The notes under the pieces: model-generated | The model's input: the letters and a program-made list of their open reading frames with translations, nothing else | Told to the model about the DNA's origin: nothing | The model's database searches: none | Made by a program: the position numbers and the translations under genes | Assembly: GCA_963575745.1 (NCBI GenBank) | Contig: CAUYUJ010000325.1 | Location: forward strand, 248,001 to 312,000 | Direction of reading: 5' to 3' | DNA: 64,000 bases | Source: Prorocentrum cordatum | Lineage: Eukaryota | In this document: positions 3,970 through 57,635 of the stretch, in pieces | How the letters are laid out: every line of letters starts with the position of its first letter | Numbering within the stretch: position 1 is the stretch's first letter

Positions 3970-4002
<33 letters not shown>

Positions 4003-4173: not shown

Positions 4174-4206
<33 letters not shown>

Positions 4207-4373: not shown

Positions 4374-4470
<97 letters not shown>

Positions 4471-4649: not shown

Positions 4650-4726
<77 letters not shown>

Positions 4727-7990: not shown

Positions 7991-8376
7991 GGGCCAGAAA
8001 ACAATCGACACCACCCCACCTACGGCCCCACGGGCCTGAGCATATACCGCGAATTCCGCTTGGGCTTTGCGGGGAACACGCTATGGCACCCGATGAGCCG
8101 TACTGTAACATGGAGAGCTATAGGTGGGATGGTGTTGTTTGTCGTTAGGTCGACCTTGCGTCTCCCGGAGACCCAGTGTCGGGGGAACTTACGCTCAGCG
8201 TGTCGCGGCGGCGGCCATGGCGACACACTACGCCCTGCGAGCGTATCGCGTGTCGCTCCGCTCCGCGGGGCGGGGGGAGCCTCGAAAGGCTCGGGACGCT
8301 GACGTTCGGGGACAGGGAAGTGGTCACCATGTCGCGCCGAGGCGTTGTGGGCCAGACCCAGCGGGGCGCTCCCAAA

Positions 8377-20390: not shown

Positions 20391-20449
20391 AGCCGCGTTG
20401 TTATGGAGCGCGTCCCGGAGGGGGTTGGCGGGCGGTTTGGCATTTGCGC

Positions 20450-35920: not shown

Positions 35921-37118
35921 CGCCCAGAACATTTCATCGACGAAGCGCAGAAGCGGAACGAACACAAGGCGCCGCAAGATGGACGCGAGAGCCGCGCCAA
36001 TCCGCTCCCAGCCGTAGCCGCTGCCGCGACCGCCCAATGGGAGCGCTCCCAGAGGTTGAATAACTCTTGCTCTAAGAGTTAACATTTGTCTTGTTACATG
36101 CATCTTAGAGTAAGAATCTAGCTTGTTGCGTTTTCCTTCTTTTTTCATTCAGGTGGCGCGGACAGTCGATGGGTGGCGATTTAGGTGATTTCGTATTAAA
36201 TTTCAAGAACCCGCCCATGTTCTCGACCCGAAGTCGAACTTATAAAGCGAAGACGTTCGGCGAAACAAAAAACTTACGACCGCGCGCGCATGAGCTCGTC
36301 AACGCGCGACGGTGGGAACTCCACTCAAAAGGACGAATAGCCCGAATAGCCCGCGGGCTTGGCGCGCCCAAACGGGGGGAACGGGGGAGCAGTTGCAAGG
36401 AGCTTAGGCTTTGCAGCGGTTCCGAGGACACCCCTGGCCCCTGCGTCCCCGCCCGCAACCTTGGCACCCCGCGGGCGATGGCGAGTCGACTTAAGCCAAA
36501 CGCGCGCGATGGCACCACGCGGCTCGATGCAAATGATCGCACCACCGTTGGATATTTCATACATAATGAATTGAACATTGGACGGCTCGATGCGCAGGAT
36601 CCAGCCCGTTTTGAAAATGCCGCCCTCCATCCGAAAGCAGATCCGCCGCCCTCGCACCGCGTCTTCGCCCAACGGGGGGACTGGCGGGGCGGCGCAGGCT
36701 CCCTGCCCAGAAATGGCAAACGCGTTGCGCCATCCCTTCTTTTCCTCCCTTGGGCGACGACGACGGTCGACAGCCCGCCGAACTCGCGTCGGCCCGCGTG
36801 CTTTCCCTCGTTGCTACATGGGGCCGCGCTGCCATCATCATCGCCCAGCGTCGTCGCCCAGCGGGAGGGGCGCGGGCGGGCGGCGCGGGGAGGGCGTGAC
36901 CCTGGGGTTCACGACCCGCCCTTCATTGGGCACCCCCCTTCCCGCCGCGCTCCACCCCCTGGTCGACGACGGCGGCCGATGACGAGGGCAGCTCGGAGGA
37001 GGAGATGGGAGCGGGGGGGGGGGGGGGCGCTGCCGCCAAGCCGTTTCACGCTCGAGGTGCCGACCGCCCGCGCGCTGCAGCGCCGCAGCCCCCCCGGCCT
37101 GGGATCCCATTCCCAGGC

Positions 37119-38576
<1,458 letters not shown>

Positions 38577-38667
38577 GGGGCCCGTCCAGATCCGCCCAGT
38601 CAGCCAAACTCGCGGCAATCCTAGTTACGCCCCATTCCTCCCTCGTGATCTTGACCCTGCGTTCTCA

Positions 38668-39063
38668 TTAAACCCTCCTCCACTCCTCCACCTCATTTCC
38701 CTTCCCCAGCCTCTCCTCGTGCTTCCCTTTCCCTTCCCATATTCCGTGCCGCCCTCATCCAACAGTCCTCATCCTCCAGGCATCCCGCATCCTATACCAT
38801 CACACCATCTGCCTCGAGGTGCATTCTTGCCGGCGGCGATCCGCGCCACGGCGCGACAGCGCACAGCTCTCCCAGGACAAGACACTGCATCGAGCTCGGC
38901 GCGCAGCGCGTTCCTCGAGCGGGCCGCGGGCTTGCGAGTGTCGCGGCAGGCGGCGGGGTCGAGCATCGATGGCCGATCGGGGATCGGACGTGCAACCGCG
39001 CTCAACCCCGCCTCCTGCGGCACCCGCTTAGCGTTGCAGCTCGCTCGAGGAGCGCGCGCTGCG

Positions 39064-39120
<57 letters not shown>

Positions 39121-39992
39121 AAGAACAACCAAGAGAGAGAGAGAGAGAGAGAGGGAGAGGAAAAATACAGAGAGAGAGAGAGGGGGAGAGGGAGAGCCCC
39201 TCAGAGGAGGAACTAGGAAGAGGAGGAGGAGAAGGAGGAGAAGAAGGAGGAGGGGGAAGGGGGCGAGGAAGAGAAGGAGGAGGCGGCGGTGGACCCGAGG
39301 ACGAGAAGGAGGAGAGGGCGGAGGAGGGGGGGAGGAAAATAAGCGGAGCTTGAGTAGAGAAAGAGCGGGAGGAGGTGCCAGCGCCCGCCAGTCAGGCGCC
39401 GCCCGCGATGGCGATGGCGAGGAGCTGCTTATCCTGCTGGCGGCGGGCGGGGGGATGGGCCGCCCCTCCTCTCCGAGGGCCTTCACCTCCATCCCTCCCT
39501 CCTCCTTCCCCTCCTCCACCTCCTCCTTCTCCTCCTCCCTTTTTCTCCTTCTCCTCCTCCCCCTCCTCCTCCTCCTTCTCCTCCTTCTCCCCCTCCCCCC
39601 CCCCTCCTCCCCCCTCGAGCCCCCCTCGGATCCCCGGTCGCCCGCCTCCACCCCCCTTCTCCGCCCGTGCCGCCGTCGGCAATTTCGCCGCGCCCCTCAC
39701 GCGCTTTCGTTGCCCATCCAATCGTGTGTGCCCCGTGTCCTCAGTCGTCGTTAGCGCCCGAATATACCCAGTCCCAGAATCGATCACCGATGCGGCGGCG
39801 CGGCGGGCACGCGCACTCGACACCCGACGCGTCGACGTCTGGAGTTGAAAGACGCAGCGTCTCCAACTCGGACGGGGTCGGGTTCCGCCGCGCGCAGGGC
39901 CTAGCACTCCAACTTGAACTATCGGCACCGTCGCGGTGATTCACCAGCTCTGACTCGAGACCAAAGCGGGGCGTCCAAGTGGAGAAGGGCAT
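38668..39992 (-). CDS. Candidate convergent spliced gene B, unknown product (exons ~39992-39901, 39788-39696, 39433-39379, 39014-38974, 38884-38813, last exon uncertain)
   Basis: Four GC donors and three CAG acceptors are phase-consistent and two introns are hairpins, but exon 2 needs non-canonical boundaries and the terminal exon is ambiguous. Confidence 0.35.
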
Positions 39993-40657
39993 GACACCTA
40001 CGACCCCGCGGTGCCCTAGGGGGAGGGGGCGGGCTTGACGGGCGAACCCCTCCGCGCGACCCCCGCGCCGTTCGCCCACCGACCGACTTATAGGGGAGGA
40101 GGGGGGGGAGGGGGGGTAGAAGGGGGAGAAGGAGGAGGAGGGGGGTAAGGAGGAGAAGGAGGAAGAGGAGGAGGAGGGGGAAGGGGGAGGAGGAGGAGAA
40201 GGAGGAGAAGGAGGACAAGGACGAGGATGAGGACGTCAAGGAGGTGGAGGAGGATGATGATGATGATGAAGCGCCTTGAAAGGTCGGTCCTCCCATAACA
40301 CAAACCTGAGAAGCCACCAATACGCCAAATGCGAAGGTAGAGAGAGAAAGAAGGCGAAGAAGCAGGAAAGAATAGAAGCGGAGAATAGGTAAAGCCCAAC
40401 CCAGGATTGAAACCCAGGATACTGAAAGAAAACATAAATGAAAGACTGTCCAAGATCCCAAATAAATCCCACCACTAGGTTCCTCTTGTGTTGAATGAAG
40501 ATAGAGAAACAGAAGAAAGGGATGCCCAAATTTGACTAACAAGATCTTGAGTGACAATTGGGTCCCAACTTTGAAAGCACATGGTCCCAAGGTCTAAAGT
40601 AAGAGGTGAAGAAAACTTTCATTAAGTCCCATGAAACCCATTTAACATGAGTAGTGA

Positions 40658-41077
40658 TCAAGGCTGATATATATGACTAAAAGAGAATCTGAATGATAAA
40701 CTGAACGACCCAAGCACGCAATGAAACCAGAAGATACGGAGGCACGCAAGATGAACGGTCAAAGCCGAATGAGATCCCAACCATGAGAACCCACGCCAGA
40801 CCTGTCGAGGAATATGTAATATGGATGAATTCAAACTAATATGGAGAACGCAAGGTGGCTGGAATTGTTTATAACCTTTTGTATTTGCAAACCACCATCG
40901 TAGGCGAGCCGCCGACGTTTGAACTGAAATGTCTGAGGGCCCTATCCCCAGGACATAAGAAATACATGCAAGAAAGACTGAGAAAGACTGAGAGCCCTCC
41001 AAGAAGCCGCAGGCCCACGCACCACGGACACCAGAAGATTCCAGTCTAAGGAAGTCCCAGGAGTGCTCTTCAGCCAT
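40658..41077 (-). CDS. Cargo ORF, 139 aa (MAEEHSWDFLRL...), unknown
   Basis: Its ATG overlaps the upstream ORF end (ATGGCTGA); shares F-x6-[IC]S-x2-L[GA]I-x2-S[DE]I with ORF 41819-42046. Confidence 0.5.
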   Translation of the reverse strand: MAEEHSWDFLRLESSGVRGAWACGFLEGSQSFSVFLACISYVLGIGPSDISVQTSAARLRWWFANTKGYKQFQPPCVLHISLNSSILHIPRQVWRGFSWLGSHSALTVHLACLRIFWFHCVLGSFSLSFRFSFSHIYQP

Positions 41078-41315
41078 ACCTCCACCGCCACTTCTCCACG
41101 AAGAAATCTCCATCCCACCAGTAATCGGACAAGTACCACACAACCGGGTGAGGCCACCCCGAATCGGGATCGATCCACGTGTCAAAGTACTCCGTTTTCC
41201 ACACTTTCGTGTAGACTTCGTCTACTTCGCAGTAGTTCCACATTCCGCCCGAGCCATGGGACCACTTGAGACGCTTCTTGGCAGCAAGCATGACTGGAAG
41301 GCAGCTTTTAGCCAT
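41070..41315 (-). CDS. Cargo ORF, 73-81 aa Trp-rich protein, homolog of gene A
   Basis: WNYCEVDEVYTKVWKTEYFDTWIDPDSGWPHPVVW..EKWRWRY aligns to gene A; preceded by SL relic 41368-41389. Confidence 0.75.
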   Translation of the reverse strand: MAKSCLPVMLAAKKRLKWSHGSGGMWNYCEVDEVYTKVWKTEYFDTWIDPDSGWPHPVVWYLSDYWWDGDFFVEKWRWRYG

Positions 41316-41367
41316 CCACTGGAGTTGAAAGTTCCCCAGCCGTACCAGACAGGAGCTCCAGAAAGGA

Positions 41368-41389
41368 TTTGAGGCAAAACGGCTACTGA
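41368..41389 (-). promoter_or_regulatory. Dinoflagellate spliced-leader relic / probable trans-splice acceptor
   Basis: TCAGTAGCCGTTTTGCCTCAAA matches TCCGTAGCCATTTTGGCTCAAG at 18/22; its TAG is the stop codon of ORF 41383-41709. Confidence 0.85.
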
Positions 41390-41709
41390 CCCGCAACAAA
41401 TTCTGTCCAAGGAACTCTACGAACCCTCTCATCGGGACCCCGAACGTTGACATACAGGCCATGATAGCCGCTGTCCCGGCAAGCTTTGAAGTGTGGGATT
41501 TTGCACCAGTCATATGTGAAATGAGGACCACCAAGGCCCGTCGGTATAAGAAGCCGAGCCGGCAACTTGACCACCCTTCGGAATAGTAGCGGGGAGCAGT
41601 ATGAAAGTGCCTCAAGATCCCGTTTAGATAGGAAGCAGACTTTGCGGTTAGACCTGCAAAGATTCCCCTGAAAGATAACGTAAGGATCCGAAACCGCGTG
41701 ATGTAACAT
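41383..41709 (-). CDS. Cargo ORF, 108 aa (MLHHAVSDPYVIFQG...TEFVAGQ), unknown
   Basis: Open frame; ATG lies just downstream of SL-like CTGCAGTCTCGGGCTCAAG (41736-41718). Confidence 0.55.
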   Translation of the reverse strand: MLHHAVSDPYVIFQGNLCRSNRKVCFLSKRDLEALSYCSPLLFRRVVKLPARLLIPTGLGGPHFTYDWCKIPHFKACRDSGYHGLYVNVRGPDERVRRVPWTEFVAGQ

Positions 41710-41818
41710 ACCGAAAGCTTGAGCCCGAGACTGCAGGAGCCGACAGGGGTCAAGTGGAGAGAAGGGGCCCATCCCTCCAAAGCCTAAGGGAGGTGAACAG
41801 ACGCCGAGGCCCAAGGAC

Positions 41819-42046
41819 TCAGAGGCTTCCCGAGGGGAGGAAAGGATTGTTGCGAAGCCACGGTACCCCTAAGAACATGTGGAGTGTGACGCATTTCTGT
41901 GGATTGTATGAACCCAAATTTACAGGAACGATCTCGGAACTTTCAATTGCCAGTGCACGTGAGCAGACGGATGCCCATGCCTCGAATACACAACACTGGA
42001 GAGATTTTGAATTCCATGGCCTGACGACCCTCTGAGGGGCAAGCAT
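41819..42046 (-). CDS. Cargo ORF, 75 aa (MLAPQRVVRPW...), unknown
   Basis: First ATG after SL relic 42103-42124; start context TCATGCTTGC is shared with the internal ATG at 41291 of the Trp-rich ORF. Confidence 0.5.
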   Translation of the reverse strand: MLAPQRVVRPWNSKSLQCCVFEAWASVCSRALAIESSEIVPVNLGSYNPQKCVTLHMFLGVPWLRNNPFLPSGSL

Positions 42047-42102
42047 GAGAGTGTGTTCCCAGATAACTTGAGAAGAGGTTGAAGCAAAACGAGGTAAGAC
42101 GG

Positions 42103-42124
42103 ATTGAACCAAAATGACTACAGA
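42103..42124 (-). promoter_or_regulatory. Dinoflagellate spliced-leader relic
   Basis: TCTGTAGTCATTTTGGTTCAAT matches the SL at 18/22; the three internal differences are all C>T. Confidence 0.85.
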
Positions 42125-42216
42125 AAAGCACCAGGACACCAAGACAATCGACAGATGGAGATCCAGGAGATGGGGAGACAGGGGTGTGAGGTACACTTTA
42201 TCAGGGATCGGACGGC

Positions 42217-42756
42217 AGTCATCGTCCTGGCCAACGTAGTGAGATTAACAATCCCAGGCCAAACCCATTTTGAACTGAAGTAAAGAAGCAAACTAAGCGC
42301 AAAGCAACCCCAAGTTGAAACTTGTCACGTCGAGGCTGTGGGAAATGAGCAAGAACCGACCCCACTACTTTGGCCCCGACAATCGGATTGAGAAGAGCAT
42401 GATGTAATCCCAGCTCATGAGAAATGACCTGAAGGCCCAATGAAATGAAGCACTTGTAATCCCCGATATTCCCAGATTGAACCAAGAGTCACCGTCCTGG
42501 CCAACGTAGTGAGATTAACAATCCCAGGCCAGACCCATTTAGAACTGAAGTGTAGAATCAAACTAAGCGCAAAGCAATCCCAAGTTGAAACTTGTCACGT
42601 CGAGGCTGTGGGCAAAGAGCAAGAATCGACCCCACTACTTTGGCCCCGACAATCGAATTGAGGAGAACATGATGTAATCCCAGCCCCAGAGAAATGACCT
42701 GAGTGCTCAATGAAATGAAGCACTTGTAATCCCATATATTCCCAGATTGAACCAAG
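42217..42756. repeat. Two tandem 270-bp direct repeats plus a partial third (also at 50924-51463)
   Basis: Copies at 42217-42486 and 42487-42756; each begins on the minus strand with SL-like CTTGGTTCAA and carries a ~75-90 codon frame lacking an ATG start. Confidence 0.9.
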
Positions 42757-42816
42757 AAATGAGCTGAGGGCCCAATGGAATGAAACACTTGAGCCGTATC
42801 TTCGGAACGATCTTGA

Positions 42817-43872
42817 TCACATCAGGAAGCGAGGTTTGCAAAGCAAATGGCACCTTACATTGGCCCCGTTACTCCCAGACTCCACCGTGATAAGATCTCC
42901 CACATCTTCAAACATATCCTTAATGAAGAGGAGGGCCACAATGCAGCTGCCAGCAAAGATCTGCGATTTGTCATGGGGCCTCTCCTGCTTTGGGCAGACC
43001 TCTGGGCCAATAAAGGCCTCTTTGGTGTAAAAGCGCGCATTGAACAAATGAATGTCCTTGAAACGAAATGTTTGGAGCCCAAAGTGCCAAAGAATCTTCG
43101 TGACATCCCTGGTAGTGAGGTATCCGTGCTCTCCCAAGACTGGAATGCTGTCTGAAACCAAGGGACCTTGATTATCAATGATGAAAGGCGTCAGCTCACG
43201 AACTGTGATGATTTGGAAATGTTCTCCAACCTTGGCCTTGAAGGTATTCAAACCCGTGAGCTGAGGTACGAAAACCATAATGTAACGCCTTGAGCTCGTG
43301 TGGTCTGTGCCGCCCTTCGGAGCGAATATTGGGCAGCCTGAGTGGTCGTGTTCCAACTGTGACTTGAACACAGGTGGGCCCAACTTGCTGATCCAGGGCT
43401 TCTTGTCCTGTTCCCAGCTTTTGGGAGCTGGTTGCGACCTCCTGTCAGGCGAGTCGACCTCCGCTTCAGATCCTGAGGTAGAGCCCCTGGTGTCTGAGCC
43501 CCCCGAAGACGGGGGGGAGTGCCTGACAGGCGCTTCCTCTCGGTAGTCCTGTGTCTCTGGCAAGGCCTCGTCCGGATCTGGCTTGGAAACCGACGCACCA
43601 CCCTGCAATTGTTTCTTGGACCCACCTGAGAACTGCATCTTCCTGGCAATCGGTGATCGGCTCCGAGACAAGGAGTCACCCCTGTGCACAGGTGCTGGAG
43701 GCGGGGTAGGGAGCACCCTGGACTCGCGAGAGTCAGCACCTGACGATGCTTTAGCCTTGAGGCCCTGATTCCTGATCTCGACCGTCCTCGCTTGGTCCTC
43801 CTTTTTCTGCTCGAGCTTCTTCTGCAGCTTGGCTTTCTTCTCATTCGTGGTAAGCACGGGCTTCGGCTCCAT
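42817..43872 (-). CDS. Cargo ORF, ~351 aa (MEPKPVLTTNEKKAKLQKKLEQKKEDQ...): Lys-rich coiled coil, disordered linker, globular C-terminal domain
   Basis: Long open frame immediately downstream of the RT stop and SL relic 44065-44080. Confidence 0.75.
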   Translation of the reverse strand: MEPKPVLTTNEKKAKLQKKLEQKKEDQARTVEIRNQGLKAKASSGADSRESRVLPTPPPAPVHRGDSLSRSRSPIARKMQFSGGSKKQLQGGASVSKPDPDEALPETQDYREEAPVRHSPPSSGGSDTRGSTSGSEAEVDSPDRRSQPAPKSWEQDKKPWISKLGPPVFKSQLEHDHSGCPIFAPKGGTDHTSSRRYIMVFVPQLTGLNTFKAKVGEHFQIITVRELTPFIIDNQGPLVSDSIPVLGEHGYLTTRDVTKILWHFGLQTFRFKDIHLFNARFYTKEAFIGPEVCPKQERPHDKSQIFAGSCIVALLFIKDMFEDVGDLITVESGSNGANVRCHLLCKPRFLM

Positions 43873-44064
43873 CTTATCAAAACGCTTCCGAGCCCAACAA
43901 TCCAAGGCGTGGCGATCGAATCCAAAGAAAAGAGGAACTGTCGGCTGAATCTGATTCCCAACCAAATCCAGATCCTGAGAGTAACAGGTGTCCGTGGTGA
44001 AAAGAAAGGTAGCCCCGCTGGGCGCAGTACGGTAACAAATGTGAGTCTGGATCACGCCAGACAA

Positions 44065-44080
44065 AGCCAATGGCTACTGA
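44065..44080 (-). promoter_or_regulatory. SL relic overlapping the RT stop codon (copy at ~52773-52788)
   Basis: TCAGTAGCCATTGGCT; the TAG at 44076-44074 terminates the RT ORF. Confidence 0.7.
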
Positions 44081-47006
44081 AGGCGAAGGTGAAGCGGTTG
44101 CCGAACCCAATCAAGCATTTCTTGAGCAAGACCCAAACGAAACTTTTTGTCCCGGGAGCCCTGAGGGGAGAATAAGGTGGTCCAGGCATCCTTGTCATAC
44201 CTGAAAACATATCCCCTATGCGAGCGTGAGTGGGTACGGCTGCCCCCAAAGTTATCAAAGGAGCGATTCTGAATGACCCAATGCTTGCAATATTGAAACA
44301 GCCTCGACGAAAAATCTTCTGGATGTCTTTGCATGTGTGAAACCCAACTAATAGCTGAATCCAAATGGAAAATAGCCCATGAAACATCTTTGTATCCCTT
44401 GGTTTTGCGATTTCTGCGTAAACTAAACTGTTCGGGAGATTCCCCCGGGAGCCTTTTGAGTTTCAACATGATCCTGATACATTGATTTTGAGCCTTGGTA
44501 ATCAAATCCGCCGTCGTCTTACAAGGGACCCAGGCAGCACCTCTGGAGCGGATAATCCCCCCCGCCATACAGTTAAGTTTTGAGAGACGTTTTGACATGG
44601 GGATCTGCTCGCTGATCAAGAACCTACTGTTAGCCCAAAAGGCTTTGTTAATCTGTGAAATACCCTGCTTGACATCTTCGTGACAGGATCCAGTGGCAGA
44701 GAGAATCGGACCCAACACCTTAGCCTCCGGTACAACAGACCAAGTTTTCCCAAAGGGATCGGACCAATTGTATCCTTGAAAGAAATAGGGGTAGGCCGGA
44801 AGGATTTCCCGATCGTCTTTGAGTTTGAGCCGATGTTCATTCCAGAGCTCCGACTCTACCAGTGCAGTCAGAGTTGCAAGGACTTGTTCCGAGGACGCCA
44901 CCACGAAGATATTATCTGACCAGCTGAGAAGGGCAATCCTGAAATCGAAGCCCAACTGCTCACAACGGATAGAGATTCCCAAAGAAGAATGGTGATTTTC
45001 TCCAGGGTGGAGGCGAAGCAATCTTCTACGGAAGCGCGCGCCAGTATGCATGCAGTCCCAGCTCCCTGCATCAACCCACGGTCTCTCTGGATAATCCCAG
45101 TGTTTGAGTCCAAAAGAGAGATGGAGACTCGAGGGTTCCTATGCAATCTGATGCAGCCAACTGTTAAAAAAGAGGGACTCCCCGTCCCAGTAGACTCCGC
45201 AGGACTAATCCATAACGAATCTGATCGTGGTGAGCTTTGATGTCAGTAATCCCAACCATTCTTTTGTTAAAATGATCTCGGCCGTATTCTAAAATGTGAT
45301 AGACACTGGTATGAAGTTCTTGTAATTGTCCACCTTTGCTGAGCCCAAAAATAAGACCTTTGAGACCTTTTGAATCAGTGTATGAATCCAAAACTGGCAG
45401 AATGGCCCTTGCCACATATGCGTGCCCGATCTTGGCAATTGCTGGCTGGGGAATGACAACTCTGGTTTGAGAGGGGGTTCCAAAACCCTTGATCTTGTTA
45501 CCCAGGTGGCCCCCGAATGTGACATCATTCCAAAATTCGGGATCGCCTAGGCAGGCCTGTATACACCCCGTGAGCCTCTGGGACCATCCCGAGGCTTTTA
45601 CTACCGCCGTACAGGCGAACTCTGTGTCGATCTTACGGGGTGCCTTGATGTTGTCCAGCGCGTCTTCCAGCAGGGAAGGAATGATGGGGTCGTTGTAGAA
45701 GTTGAAGAAACCCAAAGAGCGAAGCCAGGCGAAGTCCTCTTGCCGCTCCGATTCTGAGAGTCCCCACCTCTCGCTGTATTCTTCAGCCACCAGTTTGGTA
45801 CAGCGGTCCACTTCAAAAATCTTGACTTGATCTACACAGAAACCCAAAATGGGTAGGAGTGTCTTGCGGGAGGCCCAGACCTGTTTTCCTTGAGAGGCGT
45901 TGAGCGCAACCTGAGCCAAATCGCGTTGAAGTCTAGTTATTTTGAGAGCTTTCAAGAGGAGCTGACCCAATGAGACCCTCGTGGCTTCGTTAAGTTCGGA
46001 GTTGAACCGTGTCCTGAGACTCTTGACCCAAAATGGCTCTTCGGCAAATCTCCTAAAACTCCTTGGGGGAGCCTGAGTCGCTTCATAAACCTGGCCCAAC
46101 ATGTTCCCAGAAATCAAAGGAGAGGGTGAGGTCCCTTGGGTCATGATACCTGACCGCACATGAATCGGGCTGTTCTTCGTCATTTAAACGAATAAGTTCC
46201 GATGATTCGGGAAACAGACCTTGGGCGATCTTCCTAACCTCCAAAATGTTTGTAGGAGTCCACCTGAGAGGTCTCCTCTTACGCATCTGCTGGTGAAAGG
46301 CCAGCACATCACAGCCAACAAGAGCATGGTCCCCTGGGACGCCCGCCCAGCGGGCGAAACAATCAAAAGTGAGATCACTCCTGGCGAGAGCTATGTGATC
46401 GATCGTGCTGTTGGCCAGAGAGAGCGCCTGATCACCATCAGGCTTCCTAGTGAATTGCATGGAGGTCTCTTGGAACCTGAGAGGACACCAACGGAGATTG
46501 AGGCATGAACAAGCTTCACTGAATGATCGGAATTTCGGATCTCCGTTACCTTGATCGGCATTCATGTCCCCCAACCAAGAAAGAGTAGACCCCACGGGGC
46601 GGGATCGACCGAGTTGGATGGCACAGTTGAGAGAATCATGGAAAAAATCGTGGGCAAGATGAGAGAAGAGAAAGGATCTGGCATGATGGTGGCAACCATC
46701 GAGACAGTCGGGACGAAGATCAACACGGATAGATCTCCAATCGCAGACAATGTCTTTCACACGTTTTCTCAGAGACTTGTGCACAAGCACGCCCATGGCC
46801 CTACACCCAGGGCCAGAGTGATGGCGGTAGTAAGCGTGGCCATTGAAAACAGGGCGTAGTAGCCCATCGTTTTGAAGACAGCCCTTAAAATCCGCCTCTA
46901 AGATACAAATTAAGCCCCAGCACTTCAGCTCGAGCAAATCTAGGTTGGCTTGCATTTGAGTCTCGTCGGCCCTTTTACCCTGCACAGCTGAAACTCGAGA
47001 GGTCAT
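44074..47006 (-). mobile_element. Non-LTR retrotransposon APE endonuclease plus reverse transcriptase, copy 1 (about 3 apparent frameshifts)
   Basis: APE motifs CILEAD, GDMNA, TIDHI, GDH; RT motifs TRVVIPQPAIAK, FGLSKG, DIKAHHD, RGLMQG, LLSWSDNI, KVLG. Confidence 0.92.
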
Positions 47007-47644
47007 CGCAGTCCTAGTGCCTTGGCCTAATTACCACGTGCTTCTAACGCTTTGAGCGTCTCTACGGAAATGCACCTCGTCCAGAAAAAACTGTGGAGGT
47101 GCGTGGCAGGAGGAGGTGCCAGATGAGGAGGAAGAGGAAGTGGACCGATTCTAAAGTTCGCCTGCACAAGGCACGCGATTCGGGGCAGGGGATCGGGGGT
47201 GGGAAATAATTATTGGCGGCCCCTCTATTAGCAATAGTTTGTTCCGATGTTCGTATCCGCCTCGTATACACTTCTGCCCCATTCTTCCTCTCCCACCTCC
47301 TCTTCCTCCTCCCTCTCCTTCCCGTCCTCCTCCCGCCCTACCCTGCCCCTTATCCTCATTATTCCCCTTTTCCTTCCTCCTCCATCACTTCTTCGTCCTG
47401 CTCCCCCCCCTTCCTGCTCCTCTTCCTCCTTCTCTTGATCCTGCTCCTCCCCCCTCCTGGATGGGCCGCTGGGCAGGTGGCGCGAACGACGAGATGGGCC
47501 AGATGGAGGGGGCCCGCTGACGGTGAGAGGCACCGTCTCGCTTCCTCGCGCCAGCCGGCCTCGATGCTCGCTCCCCATGTCTCATTATCCTCCACATCCT
47601 CCTTCTCCTTCTCCTTCTGCAGGTCTCAATTGGGCGGCGGTCCT

Positions 47645-47930
47645 CTATGGCCGACGCTGGTTGCGCCGACGCCTGCGGCCCTGCTGCGCACCGCGCTTGG
47701 GCGGCGCGGCATAGAAATTCTTGGCCGTGCCCGAGTACCCGCACACGTTGAAGCAGCTGAACACTGTCTGCTCCAATCGCCTCCTATGGGCCCGCGACGC
47801 AGCCTGCCGCAGGGTAAGGTTCAACGTCTCATCCACAAACGTGGAATACCAAGACGGGTTGCCAAGATTCCAAGACCTGCGTTGAGCGCGAACCAACGTT
47901 ATGCAACCCCGCCAACCCCATACAAGGAGT
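47645..47930 (-). pseudogene. Possible C-terminal fragment of a DDE (CMC/Plavaka-like) transposase (copy at 56350-56635)
   Basis: LGNPSWYSTFVDETLNLTLRQAASRAHRRRLEQTVF resembles the GNP..Y...DE..N segment of such proteins; recalled similarity only. Confidence 0.3.
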
Positions 47931-48724
47931 AAACTAATAGCGTCAGATGGTTTCCTCCTTGGGGGAACGGTTCGCCCCCGCCCTCCCCCCCCGACATCTT
48001 GCGCCCGAAACTTTCCGCCCCTCTGCCTTTCTATCCCCCGCGCGTCGGCGCTTGGCCAGGCCAAGCGATGAAATCAAACTATTGAAGAAGTCTCAGGCGG
48101 GCGCCGAACTGGATCGCGAAGTAACTGCACCTTGCATGCCTACCGAATTTCTTCTCGCCCTCGCACGCGCGCGGGCGCCGTCCTATATCAGGCCCGTTAG
48201 GCCTGAGTTGGACCCCTACGAACCTCGACGCTTACTATTCATTTCGACCATATTCCCCCATCCCCCCCCCCCCTACTCCTCCTCCCCCCATCCGTCTCCC
48301 CCTCCTGCGCGTGGCCAGGCGGGGGCGCGCGCGGCGTTGGGGATATGCGACGCACTCGCGACCCATCCCCCCGCCCACCCCCTTCTCCCCCCCCCCCCCC
48401 CTCCCCCGCGGGAGAGGGGGGGCGGGGCGATGGCAGGAGGCGAAGGAGGAGGGGGTGGAGGAGAAGGGAAGAGGAGGGAAGGAAGGGGCAGATGAGGATA
48501 AGGAGAGGGAGGAGAAGATGAAGCGCGGGGGAAGTGGATGACGGGAAGGTGGAGGAAGCATGCGTTCCCCTCTCGAAATGGCACCCCGATCAGGTCCCCG
48601 AGCTCACCATCCTGCAGGCGCTTCGGCCGCTCGCTTTTTGCCTGCCGTGAGAACCCCCTCTCCCATCCCTCCCCTCTCCTCCTTCCTCCTCATTCCCTCT
48701 TCCCTCCTCCATCCACTATCTCTT

Positions 48725-48767
<43 letters not shown>

Positions 48768-48770
48768 TTT

Positions 48771-48786
48771 GTAGTCTCGGCTCGAG
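48771..48786 (+). promoter_or_regulatory. Polypyrimidine tract plus SL-like relic upstream of ORF1 (copy at 57476-57491)
   Basis: (CT)n-TTTTT then GTAGTCTCGGCTCGAG, close to the minus-arm relic GCAGTCTCGGGCTCAAG; 160 bp upstream of the ATG. Confidence 0.5.
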
Positions 48787-48930
48787 AGTACCCTGCACTC
48801 AGACCGCAGCCGCGACGCGAAGCGCCCCGCCTCGGAGTCAGACTCCCAGGCCTCGCGACACCGGAGGGGTCCCAGCAGGACCCTACTGATTCGCGTCACC
48901 TCTTCCCCCCCCGCCAGAGCGCCCGCCGCA

Positions 48931-50713
48931 ATGGCCCCCGCCAAGCCGGAGCGCCGTCGCTCTTCCAAGCGGCCGCCGAGCTCACGTCCTGCAGCTGAAG
49001 GGTCTCTCCTCCAACGCAAACAGGACTGCATTGCAGCTTTCAAGCAAGCGGGGTCTGACCGCCCCACGGCCGCATACAACGGGCTCGCCGAGCTGAACGC
49101 GGACGAGCTGCAGGCCACGTACGACATGCACAAGACCAACACAAAGAAGCTCGGCAGTGCCTTGATCCGCATGTGTGCCGCCAACCAGATTAGCTACACG
49201 CTGGATCACCACCAGCGCAGCAAGCCTAAGCGCAGTGGTGGTGACACATCTTACCCACCAGCTGCGTCCGCACGTCTTCAGGCTGCGGACGCCCAATTCA
49301 TTGCCTTGGACCCGGCCTTCTGGAAGGTCCCAGTCCTGGCCGAACCCACATCACTTGACGACGGCAAGACGTACAAGCCCAGCATCAGCCTCCACGACTA
49401 CGAGAGCGGTGAACGGCTGCTGCAGCACCACCTCGTGCAGGGTAAGCGTACCACGGGTCAGCTTGCGATTGCTGTCATGGGCCCAAAAAACGATAACTAC
49501 GTCGGTACCGAGCTCGCCGTCCCCGTGCTGAAGCGCACCCCAAGGCGCCCAAAGTGGTCCACACGCACGTCCCCGTGACCGTGTACCAGCTGGGCACCAA
49601 GGAAGTCGCCTGCACGGAAAAAGTAGCCGTCGCCACCATTGATCCTGCCGACCACGCATGCTGGATTCGGGTGACCATACATGAAACCGAAGCCATCGCC
49701 GCAGTCCCCTCCATGCATCAGGCCTTCGAGGATCAGTTTTCGGGAGGCGCCCCCGTGAACGGTGGTCCACGCGCCAAGGGTCCTTTCCGAGGGGATTCCG
49801 CTCCACAGGACAAGGCGCGCCAAAACCAAAAGCACAGGGAGTCCAAGAAAGACGCTCGCCGCCAGGAGCTCGATAGTCAGATCCAGGACACCTTCAAGGC
49901 CCTCTTCCACGGCAACTTTAAAGCCGTCACCATCCTCGAACCCTGCAAAAGCCTAGGCAGGTACGGATCGGGCGTCGGAAAGAGGTCCCTGGCTGCCACC
50001 TTCGGCGTCAGTCTTCAAGCGGTTGACAAGGTCTTGGCGGGTTCAGGGCAACTCGGCGCCACCTATGACCTCAGCAACGTAGGTGCAGACGAGCCCACTG
50101 CAGACAAGTACCAGACCGTGTGGTTCCCTGAGGACCAGCCCATCACGATGGCAGATGCGTTCCAGAAGTCGGTGGACTTCAAGGCCCTAGGAGTCGTCAG
50201 GCATGGCAAGTCAGGCTTATTGGGGATCCGTGTTGCACGAGGGTCAGACGCCGCCAAGGCTGCTGCCGTCAGCATCCGTGGCTGTGAAGCCACCCTCGCC
50301 AAGACGCGATACCGCATCACTGGCATTGCGGCACGCCACGCCACGCTGACCCAGCTCGCTAAGACTCTCACGGGCCCGTCCGTCAAATGGGACTGTGAGG
50401 TCTACCACGCCGCCTGGGACCCAGCCACTTCGGCTCAGTTTGCCTTAGTGCGCGCCCATCGTCCCCACCCACATATACGGTACAGGTCGCAGGGTGCCCC
50501 ATCCCGTGGAGCATCACCGAGGCCCCGTTGGCTGAGGTCGTGCCGAAGAGGGACAACGTTACCATTGTCACCCCTACAACTATCACAGAGCCTGTGACGC
50601 CGCCCGCCCGTGGTGGCGGCTTCAGCCCCGCCACGGGCACACTCCTAACCAAAGCGGCCCAGAGCCCCTACCTCCACGACCTCATGACTGCCACGCCAAA
50701 GGCAAGGGCGTCG
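48931..50713 (+). CDS. LINE ORF1/gag-like protein, copy 1 (two 1-nt frameshifts, truncated by the gap)
   Basis: Near-identical to 57636-59414. Confidence 0.65.
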
Positions 50714-50813
50714 NNNNNNNNNNNNNNNNNNNNNNNNNNNNNNNNNNNNNNNNNNNNNNNNNNNNNNNNNNNNNNNNNNNNNNNNNNNNNNNNNNNNNNN
50801 NNNNNNNNNNNNN
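50714..50813. other. Assembly gap, 100 N
   Basis: Directly visible. Confidence 1.
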
Positions 50814-51523
50814 AACCAAAATGACTACAGAAAAGCACCAGGACACCAAGACAATCGACAGATGGAGATCCAGGAGATGGGGAGACAGGGGTGAGAGGTA
50901 CACTTTATCAGGGATCGGACGGCAGTCATCGTCCTGGCCAACGTAGTGAGATTAACAATCCCAGGCCAAACCCATTTTGAACTGAAGTAAAGAAGCAAAC
51001 TAAGCGCAAAACAACCCCAAGTTGAAACTTGTCACGTCGAGGCTGTGGGAAAAGAGCAAGAACCGACCCCACTACTTTGGCCCCGACAATCGGATTGAGA
51101 AGAGCATGATGTAATCCCAGCTCATGAGAAATGACCTGAAGGCCCAATGAAATGAAGCACTTGTAATCCCCGATATTCCCAGATTGAACCAAGAGTCACC
51201 GTCCTGGCCAACGTAGTGAGATTAACAATCCCAGGCCAGACCCATTTAGAACTGAAGTGTAGAATCAAACTAAGCGCAAAGCAATCCCAAGTTGAAACTT
51301 GTCACGTCGAGGCTGTGGGCAAAGAGCAAGAATCGACCCCACTACTTTGGCCCCGACAATCGAATTGAGGAGAACATGATGTAATCCCAGCCCCAGAGAA
51401 ATGACCTGAGTGCTCAATGAAATGAAGCACTTGTAATCCCATATATTCCCAGATTGAACCAAGAAATGAGCTGAGGGCCCAATGGAATGAAACACTTGAG
51501 CCGTATCTTCGGAACGATCTTGA

Positions 51524-52580
51524 TCACATCAGGAAGCGAGGTTTGCAAAGCAAATGGCACCTTACATTGGCCCCGTTACTCCCAGACTCCACCGTGATAA
51601 GATCTCCCACATCTTCAAACATATCCTTAATGAAGAGGAGGGCCACAATGCAGCTGCCAGCAAAGATCTGCGATTTGTCATGGGGCCTCTCCTGCTTTGG
51701 GCAGACCTCTGGGCCAATAAAGGCCTCTTTGGTGTAAAAGCGCGCATTGAACAAATGAATGTCCTTGAAACGAAATGTTTGGAGCCCAAAGTGCCAAAGA
51801 ATCTTCGTGACATCCCTGGTAGTGAGGTATCCGTGCTCTCCCAAGACTGGAATGCTGTCTGAAACCAAGGGACCTTGATTATCAATGATGAAAGGCGTCA
51901 GCTCACGAACTGTGATGATTTGGAAATGTTCTCCAACCTTGGCCTTGAAGGTATTCAAACCCGTGAGCTGAGGTACGAAAACCATAATGTAACGCCTTGA
52001 GCTCGTGTGGTCTGTGCCGCCCTTCGGAGCGAATATTGGGCAGCCTGAGTGGTCGTATTCCAACTGTGACTTGAACACAGGTGGGCCCAACTTGCTGATC
52101 CAGGGCTTCTTGTCCTGTCCCCAGCTTTTGGGAGCTGGTTGCGACCTCCTGTCAGGCGAGTCGACCTCCGCTTCAGATCCTGAGGTAGAGCTCCTGGTGT
52201 CTGAGCCCCCCGAAGACGGGGGGGGAGTGCCTGACAGGCGCTTCCTCTCGGTAGTCCTGTGTCTCTGGCAAGGCCTCGTCCGGATCTGGCTTGGAAACCG
52301 ACGCACCACCCTGCAATTGTTTCTTGGACCCACCTGAGAACTGCATCTTCCTGGCAATCGGTGATCGGCTCCGAGACAAGGAGTCACCCCTGTGCACAGG
52401 TGCTGGAGGCGGGGTAGGGAGCACCCTGAACTCGCGAGAGTCAGCACCTGACGATGCTTTGGCCTTGAGGCCCTGATTCCTGATCTCGACCGTCCTCGCT
52501 TGGTCCTCCTTTTTCTGCTCGAGCTTCTTCTGCAGCTTGGCTTTCTTCTCATTCGTGGTAAGCACGGGCTTCGGCTCCAT
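51524..52580 (-). CDS. Second copy of the ~351-aa cargo ORF (extra base in a G run at ~52220)
   Basis: Near-identical to 42817-43872. Confidence 0.7.
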
Positions 52581-52781
52581 CTTATCAAAACGCTTCCGAG
52601 CCCAACAATCCAAGGCGTGGCGATCGAATCCAAAGAAAAGAGGAACTGTCGGCTGAATCTGATTCCCAACCAAATCCAGATCCTGAGAGTAACAGGTGTC
52701 CGTGGTGAAAAGAAAGGTAGCCCCGCTGGGCGCAGTACGGTAACAAATGTGAGTCTGGATCACGCCAGACAAAGCCAATGG

Positions 52782-55722: not shown

Positions 55723-57429
55723 GTGAGCATCTCAAAGAGATAGTGCTTCGTCGATTGTGTCTTTGAGCGTCTTACGGAGCGCTTCGTCGGGAGGTGGAGG
55801 TGCGTGGAGGAGGAGGTGCCAGAGGAGGAGGAAGAGGAGGTGGACGTATTCTATAAGTTCGCCTGCCACAGGCACGCGATCGGGGCAGGGGCATCGGGGG
55901 CTGGGAAATAATTATCTGGCGGCCCCCCTCTATTATGCAACAGTCCGCCATCCTGGTCAGGGCGCCTCGTATACACTTCTGCCCCATTCTTCCTCTCCCA
56001 CCTCCTCTTCCTCCTCCCTCTCCTTCCCGTCCTCCTCCCGCCCTACCCTGCCCCTTATCCTCATTATTCCCCTTTTCCTTCCTCCTCCATCACTTCTTCG
56101 TCCTGCTCCCCCCCCTTCCTGCTCCTCTTCCTCCTTCTCTTGATCCTGCTCCTCCCCCCTCCTGGATGGGCCGCTGGGCAGGTGGCGCGAACGACGAGAT
56201 GGGCCAGATGGAGGGGGCCCGCTGACGGTGAGAGGCACCGTCTCGCTTCCTCGCGCCAGCCGGCCTCGATGCTCGCTCCCCATGTCTCATTATCCTCCAC
56301 ATCCTCCTTCTCCTTCTCCTTCTGCAGGTCTCAATTGGGCGGCGGTCCTCTATGGCCGACGCTGGTTGCGCCGACGCCTGCGGCCCTGCTGCGCACCGCG
56401 CTTGGGCGGCGCGGCATAGAAATTCTTGGCCGTGCCCGAGTACCCGCACACGTTGAAGCAGCTGAACACTGTCTGCTCCAATCGCCTCCTATGGGCCCGC
56501 GACGCAGCCTGCCGCAGGGTAAGGTTCAACGTCTCATCCACAAACGTGGAATACCAAGACGGGTTGCCAAGATTCCAAGACCTGCGTTGAGCGCGAACCA
56601 ACGTTATGCAACCCCGCCAACCCCATACAAGGAGTAAACTAATAGCGTCAGATGGTTTCCTCCTTGGGGGAACGGTTCGCCCCCGCCCTCCCCCCCCGAC
56701 ATCTTGCGCCCGAAACTTTCCGCCCCTCTGCCTTTCTATCCCCCGCGCGTCGGCGCTTGGCCAGGCCAAGCGATGAAATCAAACTATTGAAGAAGTCTCA
56801 GGCGGGCGCCGAACTGGATCGCGAAGTAACTGCACCTTGCATGCCTACCGAATTTCTTCTCGCCCTCGCACGCGCGCGGGCGCCGTCCTATATCAGGCCC
56901 GTTAGGCCTGAGTTGGACCCCTACGAACCTCGACGCTTACTATTCATTTCGACCATATTCCCCCATCCCCCCCCCCCCTACTCCTCCTCCCCCCATCCGT
57001 CTCCCCCTCCTGCGCGTGGCCAGGCGGGGGCGCGCGCGGCGTTGGGGATATGCGACGCACTCGCGACCCATCCCCCCGCCCACCCCCTTCTCCCCCCCCC
57101 CCCCCCTCCCCCGCGGGAGAGGGGGGGCGGGGCGATGGCAGGAGGCGAAGGAGGAGGGGGTGGAGGAGAAGGGAAGAGGAGGGAAGGAAGGGGCAGATGA
57201 GGATAAGGAGAGGGAGGAGAAGATGAAGCGCGGGGGAAGTGGATGACGGGAAGGTGGAGGAAGCATGCGTTCCCCTCTCGAAATGGCACCCCGATCAGGT
57301 CCCCGAGCTCACCATCCTGCAGGCGCTTCGGCCGCTCGCTTTTTGCCTGCCGTGAGAACCCCCTCTCCCATCCCTCCCCTCTCCTCCTTCCTCCTCATTC
57401 CCTCTTCCCTCCTCCATCCACTATCTCTT

Positions 57430-57472
<43 letters not shown>

Positions 57473-57635
57473 TTTGTAGTCTCGGCTCGAGAGTACCCTG
57501 CACTCAGACCGCAGCCGCGACGCGAAGCGCCCCGCCTCGGAGTCAGACTCCCAGGCCTCGCGACACCGGAGGGGTCCCAGCAGGACCCTACTGATTCGCG
57601 TCACCTCTTCCCCCCCCGCCAGAGCGCCCGCCGCA

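Follow-up and report, generated by a model that had tools for sequence, protein, structure and literature searches.

In the 64-kb window, the whole stretch of DNA analyzed, we observed a GC content of 60–70%, long arrays of CT, AC and CCT, and an island of 50% GC with sharp borders to the 62% GC flank on both sides. This island is a single repeat unit of high copy number on the minus strand; no recognisable gene was found in the rest of the window. As presented in Table 1, the unit holds an intron-less chain of same-strand ORFs behind an APE-RT ORF, as a previous sequence-only reading had described. All four sequencing runs that were aligned contained contigs at 90–100% identity to the element (1385, 704, 432 and 294 contigs), with hundreds of variant contigs and a coverage of 29–30 of the 30 bins of the unit in each run, the RT and the tail alike. 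The summed contig depth at the 5′-edge bin, a rough guide, was about 20–65% of that of the preceding bin. Among the contigs listed, those of runs X2 and X6 bridge the junction between the RT and the next ORF (44074), and site 5 (42118) is bridged by contigs of runs X2, X4 and X6, with differences over 171 nt at 2 letters and 1 gap for X2 and X4 and at 10 letters for X6. In a relative, the RT (P0159) and the next ORF (P0001) come from contigs of the same size, 5642 bp, and the RT-to-ORF order is kept in relatives at 73–89% protein identity. These results bear out the linkage of the chain to the RT in other copies. At the 3′ end, the tail finishes with a (CAT)5 run (40268-40254) adjoining CCT-rich low-complexity flank, and positions 40902-40957 are absent from the contigs of all four runs. 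Neither a poly(A) remnant nor a target-site duplication was found for the element, and comparison with Rfam returned neither a ribozyme nor any other family. A "second copy" at 50814-59414 was rejected as an independent insertion: it adjoins a 100-N gap and is a DNA-level duplication including 3.6 kb of flank, the only further copy visible in the window.

Table 1. Features of the repeat unit, in order along the minus strand (window positions; SL, spliced leader).
Feature	Position	Strand	Remarks
LINE-type repeat unit	47068-40260	minus	about 6.8 kb, multi-copy
SL-like site 1	47068-47050	minus	element 5′ edge; 4 nt between the 5′ and 3′ parts of the leader; gapped score 15
APE endonuclease and RT ORF	47006-44074	minus	L1 ORF2-like, divergent; three frameshifts here
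APE motifs	46574-46554, 46406-46386, 46334-46314	minus	
Further SL-like site	46038-46022	minus	16/17 nt to a truncated leader relic; 16/21 ungapped (46042-46022); APE-RT linker coding sequence
RT motif A	45244-45218	minus	
RT motif B	45077-45051	minus	
RT motif C	44925-44899	minus	reads SDN
SL-like site 2	44080-44065	minus	gapped score 23; includes the RT stop (TAG), directly followed by the open frame of the second ORF
Second ORF	44073-42817	minus	open for 418 codons past the RT stop, in the same frame; 351 aa counted from first ATG (43872)
SL-like site 3	42806-42788	minus	10 nt past the second ORF's stop; split form as site 1; gapped score 17
SL-like site 4, weak	42768-42747	minus	start of the 270-bp units; gapped score 19
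Two tandem 270-bp units	42757-42217	minus	period 270, 2.0 copies, 92% matches
SL-like site 5	42124-42104	minus	gapped score 30; 17/21 ungapped at 42123-42103; pyrimidine-rich stretch before
75-aa ORF	42046-41819	minus	coding unsupported; codon-frame test ambiguous, −1.8/+8.6
SL-like site 6	41736-41718	minus	gapped score 16; alignment limited to the final 8 nt of the leader, GGCTCAAG
108-aa ORF	41709-41383	minus	stop TAG within site 7
SL-like site 7	41389-41369	minus	gapped score 30; 17/21 ungapped at 41388-41368; 67 nt before the 81-aa ATG
81-aa Trp-rich ORF	41315-41070	minus	conserved, no assigned function
3′ tail	41077-40260	minus	139-aa ORF 41077-40658 (coding unsupported), then non-coding sequence

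The identity of the first ORF as an APE-RT of the LINE type, as already proposed from the letters, was established through its relatives. The ORFs of this copy gave no match in a PDB sequence search, and seven of the eight gave no Pfam family; the DUF match of the eighth (E 0.072) was discarded as chance. By contrast with these searches of the copy itself, 429 proteins are related to the RT ORF at E ≤ 1e-3, one of which passes Pfam RVT_1 (2e-12) and three of which give sub-threshold matches to Exo_endo_phos. A family profile of 30 sequences matches human L1 ORF2p (E 1.4e-12) across both the EN and the RT, with motifs A, B and C aligned. The frameshifts of this copy lie near 46105, 45168 and 44993; the RT frame is uninterrupted in P0002 and P0159, at 83–89% identity, and five of the six copy-to-copy indels examined fall within or beside runs of at least two identical bases. 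The only organism name that we found, on two proteins 91–97% identical to the window RT, was Pyramimonas sp., a green alga; it is the SL likeness that points to a dinoflagellate host.

Downstream of the RT, the second ORF and the 81-aa ORF are conserved, as judged from their homologues, and their codon-frame scores match those of the RT. Residues 8-420 of P0001 align to 44049-42820 in one frame with 73% identity over 416 aa, the C-terminal domain being far better kept than the middle. The predicted layout of the second ORF comprises an N-terminal helix, a disordered basic/Ser-Pro region and a conserved C-terminal domain of about 190 aa without fold assignment, helix 9-43 being the sole confident part of the model. 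The 67 codons upstream of its first ATG are positive in the codon-frame test and are kept in P0001, whose ORF begins within a few residues of the RT stop; the in-frame arrangement of the RT stop and the second ORF appears not to be kept in this relative, since its ORF start aligns to another window frame. The 81-aa ORF gave the strongest codon-frame signal (+11.5/+21.3). Its length is kept in four relatives with RT-like divergence, P0153, P0154 and P0155 being each 81 aa from start to stop at 78–83% identity, and the alignment with P0153 preserves every one of the 10 Trp. These homologues come from ENA, JGI/IMG and NCBI. The model of this ORF is all-beta (pLDDT 61) and found no fold match; its stop overlaps the next ATG as ATGGCTGA. 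Searches returned one match among 3100 candidates for the 418/351-aa ORF and one among 4 for the 81-aa ORF, both of the element type, and no stand-alone relative of either ORF was found in 5.8 billion proteins, two look-ups in the ESM Atlas or Pfam. The term "cargo", used in the sequence-only reading, is not supported, the only relatives found being copies of the same element-linked ORFs.

The remaining small ORFs gave less uniform results. The 108-aa ORF is possibly coding (codon-frame test +9.8/+7.6 over 108 codons). The 75-aa and 139-aa ORFs, listed earlier as members of the chain, look non-coding in the same test, and contigs of three of the four runs diverge from the window at 41874/41875, inside the 75-aa ORF. 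The two 270-bp units were found again as described; they show no coding signal in the codon-frame test and their copy number differs across family members, an X4 contig that goes back 269 nt pointing to a third unit in another copy. Overall, the APE-RT LINE, its unity and some of the SL-like sites of the initial description stood, but not the cargo or the 75- and 139-aa ORFs.

To locate leader-like sequences, both strands of the window were scanned without gaps against the 21-nt leader, with a separate gapped scoring. All the SL-like sites lie on the sense strand of the element, and outside the element and its duplicate the window maximum was 14/21. Four sites exceed every null: 44080-44065, 42124-42104, 41389-41369 and 46038-46022, the last of which had escaped the earlier description. 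At a score of at least 23, we observed 4 sites compared to means of 0.08 in 60 dinucleotide shuffles and 0.31 under a 4th-order Markov null, in which none of 150 simulations reached 4; at a score of at least 30, 3 were observed and 0 expected. At a score of at least 17, there were 11 sites against 7.2, a count reached by 21 of the 150 nulls, so the weak sites are individually at background. The strong match at 46038-46022 encodes EPFWVK, and the motif EPxx[IV]K is gap-free in distant family members; its leader likeness is therefore probably a coincidence, and a strong match can arise here without any leader insertion. Taken together, these results demonstrate a non-random leader likeness at three non-coding sites (2, 5 and 7). 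Of the seven sites listed in the sequence-only reading, the other four are individually at background.

Among these four, sites 4 and 6 have no more than background likeness, GGCTCAAG occurring twice in the element and at least twice in 60 of 2000 shuffles. Site 1 alone is also at background, and the duplicate carries it with a 1-nt difference; however, a split pattern (5′ and 3′ parts of the leader, 2–9 nt apart) is common to sites 1 and 3 and is found elsewhere in the window only in the duplicate. This pattern, defined after seeing the data, occurred at least once in 13 of 2000 shuffles and at least twice in none. Sites 5 and 7 agree with the leader at 18/22 in each case but with each other at only 16/22 (hand count); this looks like independent decay from the leader, not like one site having been copied from the other. 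P0156 has the same 12 residues at site 7, so the decayed form of this site is common to a 92% relative. The first ATG lies 71 nt past site 5. The location of the sites at junctions, noted earlier, carries less weight than it may seem. That an ORF opens at the first ATG past a relic is not unusual: for a random position, this ATG opens an ORF of at least 75 aa in 42% of cases, and for the relics in 5 of 7 (P = 0.11). Pyrimidine tracts precede only 4 of the 7 sites; for site 2, the upstream 20 nt are 75% pyrimidine (98th percentile).

The reading that we favor, with a probability of roughly 40%, is that of a multi-ORF LINE carrying inherited footprints of SL-capped RNAs. The element would be a non-LTR retrotransposon of about 6.8 kb without upstream ORF1, in which the L1-like APE-RT ORF comes first and is followed by same-strand ORFs specific to the element, about 418 aa and 81 aa long, and perhaps by one of 108 aa, with a variable 270-bp repeat after the 418-codon ORF. 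The family would have inherited its decayed leaders, which lie at the RT stop and in front of the small ORFs: after a leader had been added at an internal acceptor, element RNAs would have been reverse-transcribed, and the RT would then have switched to an upstream element RNA, fixing the leader before that ORF. The AG inside each relic could serve again as an acceptor. This origin, any current use of the relics and a host that employs the leader are inferred. Against trans-splicing at site 2 in this copy, 67 conserved coding-like codons would stay untranslated.

The strongest competitor, which we consider unlikely though not by a wide measure, holds that the likeness is not leader-derived. 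The host would be a green alga without this SL, the sites would combine coincidence with a T-rich motif favored by the element (words of the ATTTTGG type, or a site for protein or Sm binding), and the downstream ORFs would depend for their translation on stop-codon readthrough or termination-reinitiation, like those of other bicistronic LINEs. The name Pyramimonas sp. agrees with such a host, and among the papers found, available in part, none reports a spliced leader in Pyramimonas sp.; however, contamination can make the source labels of bulk data sets wrong. The base composition, arrays and lack of recognisable genes in the window are in line with it as well. ATTTTGG occurs five times on the element sense strand, mostly in coding sequence, and the conserved protein motif at 46038-46022 is the strongest leader match. 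Yet sites 5, 7 and 2 lie in non-coding spacers, their match runs the full length of the leader, beyond the T-rich core, and the Markov simulations that failed to reach the observed counts keep the 5-mer content. Since the likeness of sites 5 and 7 to each other is no greater than that of chance pairs, a shared element motif gives no explanation. As for translation, the RT stop TAG followed by open codons in frame, the ORF start close to the RT stop in the relative and the ATGGCTGA overlap would suit readthrough or reinitiation, but the in-frame arrangement seems to be lost in the relative.

Another explanation, which we regard as improbable, is that leader-capped host mRNAs, or retrogenes beside a master copy, became attached to the element's 3′ part through template switching of the RT or through 3′ transduction and have since been cargo without a role in transposition. 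L1 chimeric retrocopies and 3′ transduction are established processes, and the succession of relic, short leader sequence and small ORF, with the spacing seen at sites 5 and 7, is the anatomy of dinoflagellate retrogenes in the excerpts available on them. Host-gene uptake is also known for dinoflagellate LINEs, as excerpts on SymbioLINE-Dnmt indicate (PMC5890265). Against capture, the above searches found no stand-alone relatives of the 418/351-aa and 81-aa ORFs, there is no poly(A) or 3′ UTR remnant between units, and upstream ORFs end inside the next relic. The constraint on the 81-aa ORF is unexpected for idle cargo, and derived features common to sites 1 and 3, and also to sites 4 and 5, point to duplication inside the element, not to separate captures. 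Least probable of all is that the chain is a positional accident, a LINE copy and an unrelated neighbour co-amplified by segmental or tandem DNA duplication: the only second copy in the window is such a duplication, and neither a target-site duplication nor a distinct 3′ tail was seen, but the variant contigs covering RT and tail equally, the depth drop at the 5′ edge, the order kept in relatives and the abrupt GC edges all speak against it.

Among known systems, dinoflagellate retrogenes with relic spliced leaders (DinoRL) were reportedly described by Slamovits and Keeling in 2008. According to the excerpts available of two reports, leader-bearing transcripts that re-integrate leave relic leaders, and a role in splitting polycistronic precursors is attributed to the leader (PMC7245778, PMC12014239). 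Like the element, DinoRL retrogenes in these excerpts have a decayed sense-strand leader some tens of nt ahead of an ORF without introns, with an AG that could be reused (PMC7245778, PMC12014239). DinoRL relics precede, in the excerpts, one retroposed host gene at its 5′ end, whereas those of the element are internal, between ORFs of a multi-copy retrotransposon known here from its sequence, with no parent gene found. Similarly, the excerpts on SymbioLINE-Dnmt describe dinoflagellate LINEs with a DNA methyltransferase in an ORF upstream of the RT, thus a LINE with an extra selected non-standard ORF, in an active family and a related setting (PMC5890265). That extra ORF has the ORF1 position and a known domain, unlike the several downstream orphan ORFs of the element, and these excerpts contain a single passing mention of trans-splicing and none of leader relics (PMC5890265).

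Compared to human LINE-1 ORF2p (PDB 9k6g, 8sxt, 9hdo), the element shares the succession of APE then RT, with motifs aligning over about 740 profile positions, but identity is about 20% or less and RT motif C is DN instead of DD family-wide; in contrast to human LINE-1, it has no upstream ORF1 and carries ORFs after the RT. The partial sources available on trypanosomatid L1Tc/ingi describe a LINE amid polycistronic transcription and universal leader addition, like the setting proposed here, although L1Tc has an internal promoter (Pr77), an HDV-like ribozyme and unspliced transcripts, while no Rfam ribozyme was found in the element. A LINE RT can join the cDNA of another RNA by template switching, giving chimeric retrocopies, or carry flanking DNA by 3′ transduction. 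These are the mechanisms invoked for the relic origin; their products are dead-end single insertions, whereas here the composite itself propagates. Terminons are retroelements with several co-oriented extra ORFs. This feature is also common to the element and, in the excerpts available, to the ORF-capturing retroelements of bdelloid rotifers (PMC5408684). Both are LTR or Penelope-like elements, unlike the LINE described here, and in the partial sources on them we found no report of leader relics between ORFs.

If the favored reading of a multi-ORF LINE with inherited leader footprints is true, the relics would mark past or present cut points at which one long transcript is divided into separate leader-capped mRNAs. 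Such cutting is the ordinary route to the translation of downstream ORFs in dinoflagellates.

The element lies on the minus strand as an island of 50% GC, at about 47068-40260, in surroundings of 62% GC with CCT-rich low-complexity flanks. As proposed in the sequence-only reading, a same-strand chain follows the RT ORF: the second ORF, two 270-bp units and ORFs of 75, 108, 81 and 139 aa were all located on the minus strand. LTRs were absent and the ORFs were co-linear on this one strand, self-comparison showing nothing but the 270-bp units and the duplication that flanks the gap. The (CAT)5 run that ends the element, 40268-40254, may represent its 3' tail, and no target-site duplication was found at the element edges except the common CCT-rich low complexity. 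Human L1 carries ORF1 upstream of ORF2; in contrast, no L1-type ORF1 (nucleic-acid chaperone) was found upstream of the RT ORF, where ~60 nt separate the edge at 47068 from the ATG, and a helix-plus-domain ORF sits downstream of the RT in its place. It is unusual for a LINE to carry several conserved ORFs after its RT. No Rfam family was detected in the element at E ≤ 1, nor in the window at gathering score; thus, no ribozyme-type processing signal was seen in the element.

Features of the element in the window copy, with the seven leader-like sites and their gapped scores against the dinoflagellate spliced leader
Feature	Position	Strand	Remarks
SL-like site #1	47068-47050	-	at 5' edge of element; gapped score 15
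APE-RT ORF	ATG 47006 to TAG 44074	-	three frameshifts in window copy
APE endonuclease motifs	46574-46314	-	window copy
RT motif C	44925-44899	-	SWSDNIFVV
SL-like site #2	44080-44065	-	gapped score 23
Second ORF frame	directly after RT TAG, stop 42817	-	418 codons; 351 aa from first ATG 43872
SL-like site #3	42806-42788	-	gapped score 17
SL-like site #4	42768-42747	-	gapped score 19
Two 270-bp tandem units	42757-42217	-	
1.9-kb tail		-	ATG-ORFs of 75, 108, 81 and 139 aa; terminates at (CAT)5 run
SL-like site #5	42124-42104	-	gapped score 30
SL-like site #6	41736-41718	-	gapped score 16
SL-like site #7	41389-41369	-	gapped score 30

Pfam and PDB sequence searches with the window's own element ORFs gave no match, and the proposed APE-RT identity of the first ORF was upheld through its relatives. 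An NCBI protein of 695 aa (P0002) supplies an unbroken RT frame with 85-89% identity to the window, and 429 relatives, many of them 900-1050 aa long, were recovered at E ≤ 1e-3 among 1.84 billion representatives. When 17 relatives were searched against Pfam, RVT_1 was above the curated cut-off in one (2e-12) and weaker in four, Exo_endo_phos appeared in three, always sub-threshold, and nine had no family; on P0002 itself RVT_1 reached E 0.19 at best. A family profile built from 30 members matched human L1 ORF2p at 1.4e-12, spanning endonuclease and RT, with further matches to R2 proteins (1e-6) and to exodeoxyribonuclease (E 0.01). In this alignment, the GDxN and DH motifs of the L1 ORF2p EN domain were in register and RT motifs A, B and C were aligned, motif C standing opposite FADD. 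Across all aligned relatives motif C reads (V/S)DN, with DN in place of the usual DD and both D and N near-invariant. Taken together, the relatives, the profile match to L1 ORF2p and the aligned motifs settle the predicted identity of the element as an APE-type non-LTR retrotransposon (LINE, L1 ORF2-like).

We observed contigs matching the element at 90-100% identity in four sequencing runs (1385, 704, 432 and 294 contigs, a depth that does not equate to copy number). Three of the runs are tentatively listed as DNA, two of these being metagenomes; the kind of run X1 is unrecorded and none is recorded as RNA. In all four, contigs covered 29-30 of the 30 bins that span the element between its 3' tail and its 5' edge, and they bridged 44074 in runs X2 and X6 and 42118 in X2, X4 and X6. 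These hundreds of variant contigs indicate a repeat family to which the tail belongs, and some copies carry a third 270-bp unit. Loose ends of contigs were considered as leaders and rejected, as they proved to be variants of the element's own sequence. Within the 75-aa ORF, at 41874/41875, contigs of three of the four runs break off into unlike sequence, and some copies may hold an insertion or a different segment there. A stretch of 56 nt, 40902-40957, which includes a 14/21 match to the leader (40938-40918), is skipped by contigs of all four runs and represents an indel that is polymorphic in the family. Scans of metagenome, genome and viral contigs returned no further loci of the element.

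Inside the window, 42107-50713 is repeated at 50814-59414 with 98-99% identity, right after a 100-N gap (50714-50813). An independent second insertion was rejected, since the duplicate abuts the gap and takes in 3.6 kb of flank; most simply it is an overlap between two contigs or haplotypes that were left unmerged, or else a tandem duplication including the flank. Between the two copies there are 150 substitutions, 24 indels (of six inspected, five lie in or beside short base runs) and, at the 5' end, a swapped block of ~100 nt (46987-47092), for which the duplicate's version is the one present in all four runs (loose end 46986). Outside the element the window yielded no gene that could be recognised: 10 long and 59 further ORFs gave no Pfam family, and two flank ORFs had nothing in PDB. 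Just upstream of the element, on the opposite strand, a 555-codon frame (57480-59144, plus strand) without Pfam or PDB match is unbroken in one copy, whereas the other has it split (48775-50594). Tandem repeats with offsets in multiples of ~78 bp occupy positions 1-825, low-complexity arrays of AC/GT, CT/GA and CCT type lie at 2000-5200, 6900-8100 and 36800-40300, and a second island of lower GC (50-54%) at 20000-24000 holds ORFs of up to 284 codons, with no Pfam family and unlike the element.

Of the proposed chain of ORFs, the second ORF and the 81-aa ORF are conserved. The RT stop, TAG at 44076-44074, is followed by 418 open codons in the same frame (44073-42817). A single relative was found for this second ORF, P0001, a protein of 420 aa whose residues 8-420 align on 44049-42820 in one frame at 73% identity, the C-terminal 190 aa being far better kept than the middle. 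A codon-frame test gave +12 over the 67 codons that follow the RT stop and precede the first ATG (43872). Together with the P0001 alignment, this suggests that the stretch is coding and that the second ORF measures ~418-420 aa from the RT stop. P0001 begins with a Met at the position of the RT stop, and the in-frame relation between this stop and the second ORF does not appear to be kept in the relative. Because the 418 codons are open and in frame, the first 67 are coding-like and the relative starts with its Met at this very place, the second ORF may alternatively be reached by reinitiation or by reading through the UAG of the RT, which is a live alternative.

The 81-aa ORF has relatives of 81 aa in ENA, JGI/IMG and NCBI, aligned from start to stop at 78-83% identity, and all ten Trp are kept in comparison with one of them, P0153. 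It exhibited the strongest codon-frame signal of the element. A 130-aa form of a relative reads identically across site #7, and the stop of the 81-aa ORF overlaps the ATG of the 139-aa ORF as ATGGCTGA (41077-41070). In the codon-frame test, the 108-aa ORF was moderately coding-like, and no coding likeness was observed for the 75-aa ORF, the 139-aa ORF or the 270-bp repeat. Protein searches for a parent gene of the 351-aa or the 81-aa ORF returned only element-type relatives, with no Pfam family and no usable match in the ESM Atlas. The structure model of the 351-aa protein was unusable (mean pLDDT 40), and that of the 81-aa protein (pLDDT 61) had no fold match at E ≤ 0.001.

Both strands of the window were scanned without gaps against the 21-nt leader, and the best matches were 17/21 at 42123-42103 and 41388-41368 and 16/21 at 46042-46022, compared to 14/21 at best once the element and its duplicate were excluded. 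With gaps allowed, four sites of the element scored at least 23 against 0.08 expected from dinucleotide shuffles (n = 60), and three scored at least 30 against 0, counts that none of the shuffles reached. A harsher null, a 4th-order Markov model trained on the element itself, gave expectations of 0.31 and 0.00 at these thresholds, and the observed counts were reached in none of 150 sequences. At a score of at least 17 there was no excess (11 observed, 7.2 expected, reached in 21 of 150). The excess at 23 and its absence at 17 suggest that the leader likeness of the spacer sites #2, #5 and #7 is real and solid and that the remainder are individually at background, sites #4 and #6 not going beyond chance. 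The expectation that relics would be denser than in randomized sequence was thus borne out against every null for the strong sites, and not for the weak ones. A split form of the leader, a pattern defined only after the data were seen, is common to sites #1 and #3; elsewhere in the window it occurs only in the duplicate, and it turned up at least once in only 13 of 2000 shuffles. Compared with the leader, sites #5 and #7 both reach 18/22; compared with one another they reach 16/22, which is the chance level for positions in 6.8 kb, and they therefore seem to have decayed from the leader separately.

The placement of the sites at ORF junctions is less telling than it seems and does not exceed chance: the first ATG opens an ORF at five of seven (P = 0.11), and a random position opens at least 75 aa in 42% of cases. 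A fourth strong site, absent from the seven of the sequence-only reading, matches a truncated leader relic at 16/17 nt (46038-46022) in a coding linker. We rejected an inserted relic here, as there is no insertion relative to 29 family members. EPFWVK is encoded at this site, and distant members of the family keep the motif EPxx[IV]K gap-free; since a conserved coding motif is involved, the leader match is probably a coincidence. It serves as a warning that strong leader matches can arise in this element without leader insertion.

The cluster of P0002 contains two proteins named by their source as Pyramimonas sp., a green alga. They match the window at 46102-44719 and are 91-97% identical to its RT, closer than the NCBI relatives. 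This name conflicts with the host being a dinoflagellate: either some other organism is present in the data set or the element resides in a green alga. The host lineage is the largest uncertainty of the case. The available text of the literature yielded no report of a spliced leader in Pyramimonas and no mention of the strain label that these relatives bear.

The reading that we favor, with a probability of roughly 0.4, is that of a LINE with multiple ORFs in which the leader-like sites would be inherited footprints: leader-capped RNAs would have been copied back into the LINE lineage, and the footprints would mark past or present internal acceptor sites. The Pyramimonas label and the coincidental match within the RT speak against such footprints, as does site #2, where splicing would remove the 67 coding-like codons in the window copy. 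A less probable explanation, still to be taken seriously, combines the green-algal host with leader likeness that has no leader origin, readthrough or reinitiation serving the downstream ORFs; against it stands the excess of strong sites over both nulls. In a bolder reading, the element may also be in a green alga now, the leader relics having come along by horizontal transfer from a dinoflagellate.

The proposal of a dinoflagellate retrotransposon 'operon' appears unlikely as a whole. A long transcript would be cut at the AGs of the relics by leader trans-splicing, so that the RT, the 418-aa protein and the small proteins would be translated from capped mRNAs of their own, and the uncut RNA would be the template for transposition. 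Copying of a spliced sub-RNA would renew the acceptor, so that the relics would act as self-perpetuating processing signals; a pyrimidine-rich run precedes the AG at four of the seven sites only. The capture of host mRNAs as idle cargo seems improbable: the conservation of the 81-aa ORF is unexpected for such cargo, and the protein searches gave no stand-alone relatives of this or the second ORF. Co-amplified neighbours that do not form one mobile unit are very improbable: the tail belongs to the repeat family, and RT and second ORF are linked in a relative, where the RT P0159 (796 aa) and P0001 both derive from a contig 5642 bp long. That no target-site duplication was found at the edges speaks for this rival.

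Retrogenes with relic leaders are well documented, and it has been proposed that polycistrons are split by the addition of leaders (PMC7245778, PMC12014239, in the excerpts available), although polycistronic expression is seemingly rare according to the accessible part of a review (PMC11453091). Dinoflagellate LINEs with an acquired host gene carry it upstream of the RT in the available portion of their description (PMC5890265), whereas the extra ORFs of the present element are downstream. From what is accessible on trypanosomatid LINEs, the same problem is met there by a promoter and a ribozyme, unlike the present element, which has no Rfam ribozyme. We found neither a LINE with leader relics between downstream ORFs nor a trans-spliced polycistronic retrotransposon in the available text of the literature, supplements aside.

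The element bears on how a downstream ORF is translated where every mRNA needs a trans-spliced cap. If the host is a green alga, coincidence or the transfer of a LINE across lineages would account for the relics, and the case would warn against calling leader relics on likeness alone. The family also offers two orphan proteins (~418 aa and 81 aa), apparently kept by the retrotransposon and with no known fold or function. Should the relics be real acceptors, the element would be a retrotransposon needing no promoter of its own, and the family would allow the debated leader-resolved polycistrons of dinoflagellates to be examined in a compact natural system.
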